Shown here: positions 1 to 5,531 of the stretch, in pieces | Numbering within the stretch: the stretch's first letter is position 1 | Layout: every line of letters begins with the position of its first letter | IMG/VR virus record: IMGVR_UViG_2671180429_000018 | DNA: 5,531 nucleotides | Source of the DNA: a virus | Lineage: Duplodnaviria > Heunggongvirae > Uroviricota > Caudoviricetes | Direction: 5' to 3' (one strand) | Made by a program: the position numbers

Positions 1-3000
1 CGTAATTCCGCATCAGTAAGCGCATTGGCCCGCATGTTCTGATACAGGTTGGTAACCAGCCAGTAGTGCGCGTTTGATTTCCACGGATAAGACTCCGCAT
101 CCGGATACAGGCCTCGCTTCCGGCAATACTCGTAAACCATATCAACCAGCTCGCTGACGTTTGGCAGTCCGGCGATAACGGATGCTTCTTCCCGGCACCA
201 TGCAACAAACTGCCCGGGTGATGGCAGAAATGGTCGATTCTGCCGACGGGCTACGCGCATTCCTGCGTTAACCTGTTCCATTGTGGTGATCCCGTTTTCC
301 CGGAAAGCCAGAACCCACTGGCGGCGGATTTCGTTCAGTTCGTTCTGGTCACGGTTAGCCAGGCTCGCCGGGAAAGTTGCCAGTAACTGGCTGAACACAC
401 CGTTGATGATCTGCGCTACCTGCTGTACCTGAGGCTTTTCGTCGTACTGTTCCGGCATGTTGTTGGCGATCCGACGCATCTGCTCACGGTCAAAGTTAAC
501 CATCTGTGCGGCGATGTTTTTCATAGATCCACCCCGTAAATCCAGTCTGTGTTTGTCAGGTCGAGTTTTGGTTTGCTGGCTGTCACGGCTGCCTGTTGCT
601 TGTTACGGTTGATTTCGAGCTGGGTCCACTTGTCGCGGAGTTTGGCCGGGCTAAGCACGTTACCGGACCAGAAGTTGTCCTGGCATGCCCAGCGGAACAG
701 TACACACATGTCGCGATGGTTGCGTCCGTCACGTTCACGCATCAGGCGGATATCGTTAGCCCACCCAGCAAAATTCGGTTTTCTGGCTGATGGTGCGATA
801 GTCTTCACCATGTCAAACATCCACTCTGCGGCGGTCAGGTCTTCTGCTGTCCCCCACTTGCTGCCGCTCTGAATTGCAGCATCCGGTTTAACCACAGAAA
901 GATCGTTTTCTGGCTGGTCAGAGGATTCGCCAGAATTCTCGGACGAATAATCTTTTCTTTTTTCTTTTGTAATAGTGTCTTTTGTGTCCCCCTGTTTTGA
1001 GGGATAGCAATCCCCTAATTTGAGGGATGTTTTATCCCTCGTTTTAGGGGATTTTCCCTCGTTTTGAGGGATGTCCCTCATTTTAGGGGAACCTCCCTCG
1101 TTTTGAGGGATGCACCATTCTGAGATGTTTTTATTTGGTCCAAACATGCCGCCTTGCTGCTTGATAATATTCATTCTGACGAGTTCTAACTTGGCTTCAT
1201 TGCACCGTTTGACAGGTAACTTTGTAATCTCGCTAAGTTGAGAATCGGTGATTCTGTCCATTGGTTTATTCCACCCATAGGTTTTACGCAGAATGGCAAG
1301 CAGCACTTTAAACTGTCGCTTGGTCAGATCTGCGCCTGAATAAGCCTCAATCAGCATATTTGATAGTCTGGCGTAACCATCATCGAGATCTGCCACATTA
1401 CGCTCCTGTTCGGCAAAGTTACCTCTGCCGAAGTTGAGTATTTTTGCTGTATTTGTCATAATGACTCCTGTGGATTGATCCAGTAATTCCCTCAGAATTG
1501 CATATCAATTTGCTTAGAGTCCCCGGCGGCCACCGGGGATTTTTTCTTTGTGATTTCATCAAGCGCATACTTAAAAGCTCTGCTAATCGGACTGATGTCT
1601 GATGCCATGCCAAAAGCACACAAGACCGAAGCTATAAACCTCCAGTCTGTTCTGCTTATCTTCGATTCATGACAGCCAATCATCTTTGCCAGACCGCGCT
1701 GGGTAAGCGTTGACAGGTTGATGAGTAAATCAGTTTCAGCGCGATCAATTTCTCGCTGTGATAGTTTGCTGTAACTTGTTTGTTCCATTTCTTAAGATTT
1801 CCAATAGTGAATAGCTAGTTGAAAGGTATGCGTGGAAACGCATATGGCCTTAGTTGGTCAGATATATTGGGACTCGCTTTGTCAGCGACGTAGGACGAAT
1901 GTCCATTGTGAAAATAGCGGTGTTACTTATGCAGCCAGAAGGTTCTTTTTGCTTATTTCAAGCATTTCGCTTGCTTGATATTTGCCACCAGAAATCTCTT
2001 CGATTTTTGATGCGTATTTAGTTTTCCCAAAAAACTCAGTCTTAGGGAGGAAGCCGTTTTTGAGCCACTTATAGACAGCCCTTTCGCTAACTCCACAAGC
2101 CTTCGCAACTTCAGGGATGCCGACACCTTTAATCGGCTCATCAAGATTTTGCATAGGAATATCCTTTTTCGTACTTTCAGTACGTATTATGGTTGAACTG
2201 AAAGTTTTTGCAAGTGCTTTAGTATCGTACTCATGGTTCAGAATGAAAAAGTGCGCAAAGAATTCGCCCAGCGGCTAGCGCAAGCCTGTAAAGAAGCTGG
2301 TCTTGATGAACATGGTAGGGGAATGGCTATAGCCCGTGCCCTTTCTCTTTCGTCCAAAGGCGTTAGCAAATGGTTTAATGCTGAGTCTTTACCGCGTCAG
2401 GAAAAAATGAATGCGCTTGCGAAATTTCTAAACGTTGATGTTGTTTGGCTTCAGCACGGCACTTCGTTAAATGGAGCGAATGATGAAGATACTCTTTCAT
2501 TTGTTGGCAAATTAAAAAAAGGGTTAGTGCGCGTGGTTGGTGAGGCAATTCTTGGTGTTGATGGTGCCATCGAGATGACCGAAGAGCGCGATGGGTGGCT
2601 CAAAATTTATAGCGATGATCCAGATGCCTTTGGTCTTCGTGTGAAAGGAGACAGCATGTGGCCCAGAATAAAATCAGGAGAATATGTACTCATTGAGCCT
2701 AACACCAAAGTATTCCCGGGTGATGAGGTGTTTGTCAGAACCGTTGAAGGACACAACATGATTAAGGTTCTTGGCTATGACAGAGATGGAGAATACCAAT
2801 TTACAAGCATTAACCAGGATCACAGGCCTATAACGTTGCCTTATCATCAAGTAGCAAAGGTGGAGTATGTAGCTGGTATTCTGAAGCAATCTCGCCATCT
2901 GGATGACATCGAGGCAAGGGAGTGGCTGAAAAGTTCGTGACTTCATCGTCACATAGCTGGTAACCAGTGGCCTGAAGAGACGTTTGGGTAAGGAGGATAG

Positions 3001-5531
3001 ATGGCGTTCAATGACCTTGAATATCAAGCAGTAAAAAAAGAAGTTCACCAATTCATTGAAAGCATAAGGCCGCCTGAACATATCCGCAATGAACTGGATA
3101 TTGTTTATAGCATCAATGACCAAACGATAGATATCGGCGAACAGCGCCCCGTGTGGCAGGGCAATCCAGGTGAAACAAACATCCTGCCATCAGCAAGAAT
3201 CAAGTACATACGTTCTCTGGATAGATGGAAAATCTATTGGATGCGGAAGGATATGAAATGGCATCAGTACAGTACTGAACTTTCGCTGACTGATGCGCTT
3301 GAGCTTGTGCGTGCTAACCCGGATTGCTGCTTCTTCGGATGAGTGAAGAGACGTTTGGATGATGGATGGTCGCAGAGATGCGGCCTGATTCTAAAATAGG
3401 ATATAAAAAATGAGAATACTAGGTGTTAGAGCGGCGCCCAAAGTTACATCTTTTGTTGTATATTGCACTAATGAGTCTGCACTCAAATGTGTTGATGTTA
3501 TTAAAATACCTTCGACCTTAGACACACCAGAAAAATTAAAGTATGTGAGAAATAACATCCTCGACATTCTTAATTTATATAATGTTGAATTAGCTGCCAT
3601 ACGCGTTACTGAATCAAACTCTGATAATCTTAGCATTGACCGCCTTTATATAGAAGCTGTTATTCAAGAAGCATTTTCAAGCAGTGATGTAAGAAAATAT
3701 TACACTATTAGAAAATCTGGCATGAAATCATCATTGAACCTAACAGAGATCGAGTATAAAGAAATATTGAAGTCACACCGCAATATAAATGGAATCGATA
3801 ATTCTGGTTTTACAACTGAAACAAATGAAGCTGTTTTGGCTGCACTATCTGCGGAGGTAAGGGGATGCTAACTCCATACAAAAGAGCTGATGTAGAATTC
3901 GAATGGATTAGTGATCTAGAAGAACAGGGTTGTTTTTCAAAAGTATATCTGGCTCATGACAGACACCTAGCTCATGACTTGGTGATTAAAGAAATAGAAA
4001 AAAAAGAAAACACTAACCACGACGACTACTTTAATGAAGCAAGGCTTCTCTATAAACATGCACATCCAAATATTGTGCAAGTTCAGTATGCTGCTCAATG
4101 TGAGAGCAATATCTATATAGCCATGCCATTTTATCATAATGGTTCGCTAAACCAATTAATGAAAAAAAATAATCTTACAAGCAGGGAGATAATACGGTAT
4201 TCCATTCAATTCTTAAGTGGACTTTATCATATACACTCAAAAGGTCTTATGCATTTTGATATAAAACCTAATAACATTATGATATCAAACAGAAATGAGG
4301 CCATGCTATCTGACTTTGGATTATCTCAGTTAGTCAATGAGGAATCGAGAGCTGCGCCTGAGTTTGGATATCATTTTCATGTGCCACCGGAATATTTTTC
4401 TTTATCAACAAATGATTATAATTTCACATATGACATATATCAGGCAGGATTAACCATATATAGAATGTGTGTTGGACATGATAATTTTGAAAGAGAAAGA
4501 TCTGCATTTAGCACGATTGAACAACTCAGAGAGTCGATAATTAATGGCTGCTATCCATTAAAAGAGTATCCTCCCCATATACATAAAAAATTAATAACAA
4601 TAGTGAACAAATGCATTCATGTAGATCCAAATGAAAGATATCAATCCGTACTAGATGTACTAAACGATCTCTCAGCTATAAGTGATGGCGTTCTTGACTG
4701 GCGTCTACAGATGACGAAACCAACTAACGGCACATGCGAATGGCAAAAAAAGTCTGGGGACGCTATACTGTCTATAGTTTTTGACGCAGAAAATTCGTCT
4801 ACTACTGGTTTTCGTTTATACGATGATGGGCGGAAAAGGCGTGCTACGAACTTAACAATATCCTCAGGATGTACCCCTACAAAACTGTATAGGTTATTAA
4901 AGGATAACTGATCATGAAAAAGCGCGAGGAAGTAAGCAAGCTGCCTCGCAGACGTGATGCAGCATTAGCGGTTCCCTACAAAAAAGATGAGTTCATAAGC
5001 CCTTCTGATGACAAAAAATTTTCAAAGGCGAAAAGTTTTACATCTACATCTCTAAAAGATAAATACTTTAAAATCTAGCCCGGCCTCAGCGCCGGGTTTT
5101 CTTTGCCTCACGTTCGCCCACCTAAAAAACATAACCAATTGTATTTATTGATGTAACTCGCTAAACCATGCAGTTATGATCCCTGCCGCATAACCTTCAT
5201 CAGCCACATTTTCAAAAATAAATTTCCTTATATATCAGAATCATACTTCGTAGAGTTAATAAATCACCAAAATTCGTACCAATAGTTCTTGATAATGTCG
5301 AACTATTGGTTCATTATTATCGTCGTCAGCAGGACGCATTACTCACCAGGGCGGTGAATATACAACGATTCGTGAACCGCCCCGGTTTTCCTGGAGAGTG
5401 TTTTATCTGTGAACTCAGGCTGCCAGATCATCGTTTCTGATGGAAGCATAATAAGCTTTTTCTGCTTCTGCCGGAGGAATATGGCCCAGCCTTTCCAGCA
5501 ATCGTCGATTGTTATACCAGTCCACCCACGT

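Follow-up and report, generated by a model that had tools for sequence, protein, structure and literature searches.

Why should the same 15 base pairs stand on both sides of one small gene in a phage immunity region? The question is raised by the IMG/VR virus record IMGVR_UViG_2671180429_000018 (Caudoviricetes), of which a stretch of 5,531 nucleotides, here called the window, was analysed. The gene order of the whole window is that of the immunity region of phage 933W, and the segment tested, positions 2700-3700, is 100% identical to 933W and to many Shiga toxin (Stx) phages. Behind the repressor gene cI, a 113-residue open reading frame (ORF113) encoding a DUF3024 protein lies between two exact plus-strand copies of TGAAGAGACGTTTGG, copy 1 at 2973-2987 and copy 2 at 3344-3358. 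A first-pass annotation had taken the pair for the scar of a single-gene cassette insertion, for a short homology used in module exchange or, alternatively, for a regulatory or RNA element that recurs in front of successive genes. Here we show that both copies are what is left of a lambda-type cI gene, namely its 3' end, and we argue that recombination probably formed joints at them, on the repressor-distal border of the immunity module.

The bracket itself is much as it had been drawn, with identical 15-mers on the two sides of the ORF. Copy 1 ends 13 nt before the ORF113 start codon (ATG at 3001), within one base of the 14 nt originally given, and the intervening 13-nt leader, GTAAGGAGGATAG, carries the very strong Shine-Dalgarno sequence that had been pointed out (AAGGAGG). 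Copy 2 begins, as described, 2 nt past the ORF113 stop codon (TGA, 3340-3342) with a single G between, and the sequences beyond the two copies do differ, from their first bases on. Apart from this pair, exact 15-mer repeats are found in the window only among the iterons of the O gene. When the window was shuffled 1000 times with its dinucleotides preserved, 21 of the shuffled sequences had some exact 15-mer direct repeat; in a set of 200 shuffles, this particular pattern was matched at least twice, at up to three mismatches, in 3. The repeat alone is therefore suggestive and no more than that, chance being only modestly unlikely, and it is the comparative evidence that establishes its non-randomness: the same bracket, at the same 371-nt spacing, is found in about 80 independent loci, and approximate matches to the motif number 415 in 3.5 Mb of real loci against about 10 per 0.76 Mb of shuffled sequence.

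The nature of the repeat becomes clear when it is read in frame. As (CC)T GAA GAG ACG TTT GG it holds the codons for PEETFG, and the cI gene of lambda (NC_001416) ends in ...VIASQWPEETFG and a stop codon with the identical 15 nt. Across 120 viral contigs with the motif it is mostly preceded by ...GTTATCGCCAGCCAATGGCC, which reads ...V I A S Q W P in the same frame, and 68 of its 136 occurrences in viral loci close open frames of at least 150 codons and are real cI ends. In 79 lambda-immunity cI genes, sampled without bias by searching from the protein, the tail is TGAAGAGACGTTTGG in 71 cases and AGAAGAGACGTTTGG in 8. The base directly past the 15-mer, the wobble position of the terminal glycine codon, is represented by all four bases in this sample, the stop codon is TGA, TAA or TAG, and the sequence downstream falls into 24 different classes. 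Since variation starts right after the 15-mer, the repeat ends on its right side with the final base of cI that is under constraint. Neither copy in the window ends an intact repressor ORF with helix-turn-helix (HTH) and S24 peptidase domains: copy 1 sits behind the stop codon of the 933W-type cI, and copy 2 behind that of ORF113, with eight open codons upstream. Both are displaced coding sequence, and it is as such that the 15-mer is best treated by annotators and motif hunters; this coding nature, together with the stack of relics described below, had been overlooked by the first-pass annotation.

The 933W-type repressor of the window has the C-terminus ...EWLKSS, closed by the TGA at 2938-2940, and is 100% identical to the annotated cI of 933W and its relatives. 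Past this stop codon two relics are directly seen stacked in frame (...LKSS, stop, LHRHIAGNQWPEETFG, stop). The nearer one derives from the 3' end of an SH2026-type repressor and aligns with the real cI end of SH2026Stx1 (…IIGRVFWSSHSW and stop) and with the sequence that follows cI in lambda. The farther one, which holds copy 1, reads CAG TGG CCT GAA GAG ACG TTT GGG TAA (QWPEETFG and stop), in frame with the 933W cI, and the relic that holds copy 2 translates as SEETFG and stop in a frame of its own. Such stacks recur elsewhere: in SH2026Stx1 the cI stop is followed by a lambda-type relic, and L079 and L084 carry a third repressor type followed by both kinds of relic. We conclude that successive repressor replacements each left a tail fossil in the immunity region.

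Lambda itself (L125; NC_001416, complement of about 37,190-37,226) has a relic of the SH2026-type C-terminus, LIGKVFWSAHS followed by two stops, directly behind its cI stop codon, in the spacer between cI and rexA. In the window, the TGA of the 933W cI is followed by C, a leaky context, and then by 16 in-frame sense codons up to the TAA that ends at 2991. This in-frame run is probably a one-in-three coincidence of stacked relics. Readthrough of the stop codon to give an extended repressor is the less probable reading, as the relic is explained by stacked tails of other repressors.

Does ORF113 come and go as a unit? In L008, L038 and L116 a genuine lambda-type cI of 232 codons ends in copy 1 and is followed by ORF113 and then by copy 2; the leader after genuine cI ends in the relatives is GGGTGAGGAGGATAGATG, in which the cI stop codon overlaps the Shine-Dalgarno sequence of ORF113. 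In L092, L067, L110 and L122 the site is empty, the cI tail running on into ATGATGGATGGTCGCAGAGATGCTCGTAGAGC..., and the flank that follows the tail there is the one that follows copy 2 in the filled loci L038, L086 and L081. When these three filled loci are aligned with L092 and L067, they differ by an exact indel of 371 bp, which is the 356-bp insert plus one repeat. Copy 2, the stop codon after it and the terminator stem are together the usual sequence behind a lambda-type cI. The protein kinase (stk) module that follows in the window likewise has a relative without ORF113, L283, in which a repressor of the P22-c2 type is followed by one diverged tail relic, a hairpin and the RuvC-like and stk genes. 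ORF113 is inserted between genes that are adjacent in relatives, as seen for L092 and L067 against L038 and for L283 against the window. The search for empty sites that the first-pass annotation had called for was thus run and found them (L092 and L067 and, for the stk module, L283), and its single-gene cassette is borne out by one-copy loci that lack the ORF, have the same flanks and differ by exactly this unit. An indel so exactly bounded by the repeat suggests, on sequence comparison, that homology was reused, over and above a one-off illegitimate join. For the module downstream in the window, a synthetic deletion junction was matched over at least 80% of its length by 186 complete E. coli records (185 genomes); among the matches listed, 12 of 12 lay in two pieces spanning 781 bp, that is, with ORF113 present.

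Homology between phages is also seen to break at the copies, with BLAST breakpoints that cluster at 2963-2968, 2989-2994, 3366 and 3384 (Table 1), a pattern that fits the earlier suggestion of a short homology for module exchange. Upstream of ORF113 the phages have no fewer than three types of repressor, and downstream of it no fewer than four modules.

The arrangement is general among phage-borne DUF3024 genes. All 71 such loci, at 60-100% amino acid identity, have a repressor-tail relic 0-3 nt past the stop codon, and all 71 have a second repressor-tail-like sequence before the Shine-Dalgarno sequence. The tail involved need not be of the lambda type: an SH2026-type tail brackets DUF3024 on both sides in a Rac-like prophage of Kluyvera, and in L271 both the 3' relic and the matching upstream copy come from a third repressor type (…GTAGAGACGAAGCTCAGGCTGGTTTAG). 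In Erwinia, where the DUF3024 protein is 59% identical, the tail is TGGACAGAAGAGACGTTCGGATAA upstream and TGGCCGTAAGAGACGTTCCGGTGA downstream. Copies 1 and 2 share lineage-specific variants, ACGTTC in Erwinia and TGATGAGA in ST160; concerted evolution of the two copies was considered in this connection, but derived bases are shared in some lineages and not in others, and we make no strong claim for it. A DUF3024 variant of about 82% amino acid identity lies behind cI, with frameshifts and stops, in L006, L007, L022, L083, L094, L105, L113 and L114, and in this lineage copy 2 has decayed to GAGAAAAGAGATTTAGG, with the terminator hairpin and its T-run intact. The gene is kept as a pseudogene in several contigs. 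The search of genome contigs with ORF113 gave three loci only; no tail relics were found at the flanks of two distant homologues in metagenome-assembled genomes and of a Yersinia locus, all outside phage contexts, and the bracket therefore appears specific to lambdoid and prophage contexts. In Rouxiella badensis CP049603 (L281, 1852-2842) two tandem DUF3024 genes, their tail relics kept, stand behind an S24 repressor, with a 3' fragment of a DUF333 lipoprotein gene between them and the full DUF333 gene after them, an arrangement that looks like the product of an unequal crossover.

Other small genes have been placed between repressor tails as well. In L047 (7551-7652) a hydrophobic mini-ORF of 23 codons (MREYLIVGVVTLLSVVAIVLMVA) lies between two cI-tail copies 87 bp apart, and in four to five further loci the second tail copy has diverged. 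The 23-residue mini-ORF is also present in L079, L084, L091, L096, L097 and L272. L084 and ST160 have one more tail, behind which lies another small hydrophobic ORF (ATGAGGATAGGCATTGCTTTTCCGGTGATAGTG...). These ORFs could encode membrane peptides or toxins. Three tails in series are found in L272, L084 and L275.

The evidence speaks against a function of the repeat itself. A scan of the whole window against Rfam 15, with E values up to 1, gave no match at the repeats, the only sub-threshold matches being to the O iterons (992-1111, a spurious small nucleolar RNA). A promoter and terminator scan of the plus strand from 2850 to 3500 made no call at either copy, with no sigma-70-like site between 2850 and 3000 and no terminator-like site after ORF113. 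Among 24 distinct close relatives 6 of the 15 columns of copy 2 are variable, against 7% of the columns of ORF113 and 11% at its third codon positions, and in L271 and L282 unrelated tail sequences stand in for copy 2. A regulatory or RNA element is unlikely, given that copy 2 is less conserved than ORF113 and has decayed where the gene is a pseudogene. Of the first-pass interpretation, the cassette and the short homology are largely borne out, and the recurring regulatory element is not supported. A hammerhead-like core in the flanks of ST160 (CTGATGAG) was also rejected: it is without GAAA or stem III and has no Rfam match, and a real tail variant, WPDEIFG, explains the sequence.

What does look constrained, unlike the repeat, is the hairpin behind copy 2. 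The same stem, followed by a T-run, comes directly after genuine lambda-type cI genes in L027, L076, L112 and others, and the hairpin is therefore the stem of the lambda-type cI terminator. In L283 it has compensatory stem changes (GGCTGCAGAAACGCAGCC), and after some copies, such as that in L275, it was not found. In the window the stem is predicted to fold, the T-run is replaced by TGATTCTAAAATAGG, leading into the RuvC-like and stk genes, and the scan finds no terminator at the hairpin; the loss of the T-run presumably lets transcription read through into these genes. Separately, a 7-bp stem-loop that encloses the ORF113 stop codon is predicted within 3331-3350, with TTCTTC (the FF codons at the close of ORF113) paired to GAAGAG (the EE codons of copy 2).

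We propose that the tails are most likely reused as short homology for the gain, loss and exchange of cassettes, because conservation ends with the cI tail and a hypervariable slot begins behind it. According to this model, the first tail-ORF113-tail unit would have arisen when two collinear lambdoid genomes crossed over unequally and, for the most part, illegitimately. The break in the right-hand partner would have fallen within the cI tail of that partner, whose repressor was discarded, and the join would have had to lie upstream of the terminator or cargo of that right-hand parent. The two tail copies, of 15-25 bp, would then have offered short homology for single crossovers, which at copy 1 would bring ORF113 to new repressors and at copy 2 to new downstream modules, or would delete it. 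Such events could be the work of Rad52-like recombination by the phage, of recombination by the host, or of slippage from one direct repeat to the other. As an accessory gene expressed in the lysogen, ORF113 would share the transcript of cI, and its role would probably be in defence.

Several points weigh against this model. The repeat is 15 bp long, and 19-25 bp in some relatives, which places it at or below the minimal efficient pairing segment of Red-beta, 23-27 bp, that of RecA being 31-34 bp (PMC3945230); homologous exchange at the tails would therefore be inefficient, an event that is rare but plausible over evolutionary time. The junction always falls 0-3 nt past the DUF3024 stop codon, even where the relic is of another repressor type; a junction of such constancy is not what illegitimate joins at random would be expected to give. 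Tail relics can still be made out next to DUF3024 genes with no more than about 60% identity, a persistence that needs either recurrent regeneration or some selection. Furthermore, we infer the joints from sequence polymorphism, and each indel taken singly may be read as a gain or as a loss. The end of DUF3024, TTC GGN TGA (...FFG and stop), resembles that of cI, TTT GGN TGA (...TFG and stop), and this similarity is a possible microhomology lead for the constant junction.

How, then, do other explanations compare with reuse of the tails? The repeats could be passive fossils of illegitimate joins that were kept by selection for intact flanking genes, as in the model of Hendrix, in which case they would never have been recombination substrates and the empty and filled states would have been built independently. 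Relic lengths and types that vary between lineages, the stacked relics of three repressor types, a repeat below the pairing minimum of Red-beta (PMC3945230) and the weak conservation of copy 2 would all be expected on such a history, to which we allow real weight without thinking it probable. It has to contend with empty and filled sites that share both flanks and differ by exactly the repeat-bounded unit, an indel that independent illegitimate events would not recreate to the base, with several unrelated homology breakpoints that coincide with the copies, and with the variants that copies 1 and 2 share in Erwinia and ST160. In a further reading, the conserved cI tail could be a generic docking sequence, used by a cassette system that is assisted by a recombinase and has no integrase. 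Each of the small genes expressed in the lysogen (those for DUF3024, hydrophobic mini-peptides and others) would then carry a 3' copy of a repressor tail, and Rad52-like recombination at tails of 15-25 bp would string them behind any repressor and excise or swap them. The relics would persist since the cassettes that keep their tail are the ones that spread. This reading we hold to be rather unlikely.

A functional cis element on the mRNA or DNA of the cI operon, recurring before successive genes as a processing site, a coupling signal, a protein or small-RNA binding site, or a part of a terminator or 3' untranslated region, is improbable. The repeat does recur between successive small genes in several lineages, the hairpin behind copy 2 has compensatory changes, tail relics last beside diverged DUF3024 genes, and pairing is possible between the FF codons at the end of the ORF and the EE codons of copy 2; yet half of the motif occurrences are the plain coding end of cI, neither Rfam nor the promoter and terminator scan reported anything at the copies, copy 2 is more variable than ORF113 even at third codon positions, decays beside an intact hairpin in the pseudogene lineage and is replaced by unrelated tails in L271 and L282, and the hairpin is absent behind some copies (L275). 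Direct repeats around a discrete insert and precise empty sites would also be produced by a transposon-like or site-specific element, with the 15-mer as its target-site duplication or attachment site. However, the 356-bp insert has room for ORF113 only, ORF113 is no recombinase, the ends of the insert have no terminal inverted repeats, the repeat varies in length, extent and sequence type between lineages, and the supposed target is accounted for by coding constraint on cI, all of which leaves this origin very improbable. Lastly, a chance repeat of no biological meaning, for which it can be said that about 2% of shuffled windows hold some exact 15-mer repeat, has practically no claim on belief: it is already refuted by the bracket at 371-nt spacing in some 80 loci, by the excess of motif matches over shuffled sequence and by the identity of the sequence with the end of lambda cI.

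The place at which these events would have occurred is well known. ORF113 occupies the same position as rexAB in lambda, directly downstream of the repressor and co-oriented with it, and the interval between cI and N is presented in two studies as a mosaic hotspot for lysogen-expressed accessory genes, exclusion or defence genes among them, for example rexAB and, in BTP1, bstA (PMC8585504 and PMC7067206, citing Degnan 2007). The cargos of this slot are diverse, comprising rexAB, HigBA, an NYN protein, a ParA-like ATPase, RuvC-like/Stk and DUF3024. This work describes the hotspot and not repressor-tail relics as its recurring joint (PMC8585504, PMC7067206), and a literature search with the phrase 'cI remnant' returned unrelated matches only; the relics may be partly described already, in Degnan 2007 or in Clark 2001 (HK620).

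Two accounts of phage mosaicism each capture part of what is seen here. In the linker model, which goes back to the modular theory of Susskind and Botstein and is represented in a later account, 'short conserved boundary sequences' lie at lambdoid module junctions (PMC3029335, refs 21-22). Like such linkers, the cI tail is a short conserved sequence that stands at the junctions of exchangeable modules in many phages and coincides with breakpoints, and its duplication on both sides of a cassette lets single crossovers re-assort the left and right neighbours. Unlike them, it is a constrained coding tail of the repressor and not an intergenic signal, its extra copies are non-coding and drifting, and recombination at the tail in the window is deduced only from the indel pattern. 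With the model of Hendrix and Juhala, of mosaic joints by illegitimate recombination and of morons (PMC3029335), the locus shares an extra gene between genes that are adjacent in relatives, joints at gene ends, and leftover fragments of a displaced neighbour, here of three repressor types; in contrast to a moron, ORF113 is without a promoter or terminator of its own and appears to ride the cI transcript. Integron arrays offer a third likeness, in that small promoterless genes follow one upstream promoter with a short recurring separator between them (L272, L084, L275 and L281), although the separators here are gene-end relics of several unrelated types, with neither a core site that is conserved nor the imperfect inverted-repeat structure of attC. 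As for the 15-mer, it is no palindrome and has no inverted-repeat partner, and no integrase was found in the window or in the annotated neighbourhoods; nor does the insert look like a transposable element, as it encodes DUF3024 only and has no inverted repeats at its ends and no constant duplication length. A transposon, an integron cassette, a canonical moron and a known RNA element were each considered and rejected on their defining features. The case is one of lambdoid mosaicism at a known hotspot, mixing features of linker sequences with those of illegitimate relics.

The features of the window are collected in Table 1. ORF113 belongs to DUF3024 (Pfam PF11225, 1.2e-30, 106.5 bits against a cut-off of 24.9), matches PHROG 3467 at 2e-67 and, over residues 1-113, matches PADLOC PDLC05018, the candidate defence family PDC-S43, at 4.4e-41. 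Its AlphaFold model has a predicted local distance difference test (pLDDT) score of 91, and a fold-neighbour search with it gave nothing significant. A literature search found no paper on DUF3024 and one incidental mention of PDC-S43. PDC families are candidates, and a defence role for ORF113 is accordingly a candidate role only. In the module behind it the RuvC-like ORF overlaps the start of stk by 7 nt and the pair travels together, also in L283; Stk matches the PADLOC kinases PD-T4-6 and mad6, and the RuvC-like protein has no PADLOC match. The two may form a two-gene defence unit.

Table 1. Features of the window, with the homology ends of related phages. Positions are those of the 5,531-nt stretch.
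Feature	Position	Strand	Basis or remark
P (end only)		-	
O gene with iterons	521-1459	-	
cII	1492-1788	-	
cro	1927-2154	-	
cI, 933W-type, 235 aa, HTH and S24 peptidase	2233-2940	+	ORF list; Pfam HTH_3, Peptidase_S24
SH2026-type repressor 3'-end relic (…CACATAGCTGGTAA, …HSW and stop)	2941-2963	+	alignment
Lambda-type cI tail relic (CAGTGGCCTGAAGAGACGTTTGGGTAA), holds copy 1	2964-2991	+	translation
Leader with Shine-Dalgarno AAGGAGG	2988-3000	+	sequence; overlapped by TAA (2989-2991) of the tail relic
ORF113, 113 aa, DUF3024, cassette cargo	3001-3342	+	Pfam, PHROGs, PADLOC
Second lambda-type cI tail relic, copy 2 and GGA TGA end	3344-3362	+	translation
Hairpin GGTCGCA-GAGA-TGCGGCC (GGTCGCAGAGATGCGGCC)	3368-3385	+	RNA fold
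Downstream module (RuvC-like and Stk)	3410-4911	+	joined at copy 2 and hairpin
RuvC-like gene, 153 aa	3410-3871	+	ORFs, PHROGs
Stk protein kinase gene	3865-4911	+	Pfam Pkinase 2e-46, PHROGs, PADLOC PD-T4-6-like
54-aa ORF after stk		+	
GC-rich hairpin, then T-run	about 5079-5100		read by eye from the sequence, no scan support
H-19B class (HigB/HigA cargo)	match ends 2989		BLAST; 2 nt after copy 1
PhiR12 and Lambda_ev classes	matches end 2963-2968		BLAST
LC616xxx class (NYN-domain cargo)	match ends 3366		BLAST; 8 nt after copy 2
SH2026Stx1	match spans 2949-3384		BLAST
ST160 (P22-like; ParA-like cargo)	match starts 2982		BLAST

At the right-hand end of the window, within 5306-5531, lies the 3' end of an insertion sequence (IS) 3-family transposase gene on the minus strand (5415-5525, ...WYNNRRLLERLGHIPPAEAEKAYY...), so placed that the IS terminus and the end of the IS3 gene come just past the terminator of the immunity operon. 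In the relatives L002 and L003 the gene for the antiterminator N is found downstream of this operon. At the other end, the iterons of the O gene (989-1112) are repeats of CCCTCGTTTTGAGGGAT, a known ori feature unrelated to the repeats around the cassette.

Our analysis makes a nameless repeat legible as a record of how the immunity regions of Shiga-toxin and other lambdoid prophages were rebuilt, with accessory and defence genes added or lost at the fossil tails of repressors, and it singles out DUF3024 (PDC-S43) as a candidate lysogen-expressed defence gene in O157:H7 prophages. Whether mosaic joints form by recombination at short linkers or by illegitimate recombination followed by selection is an old question, and the natural pairs of filled and empty sites, the several tail types and the multi-cassette arrays described here make it experimentally tractable.

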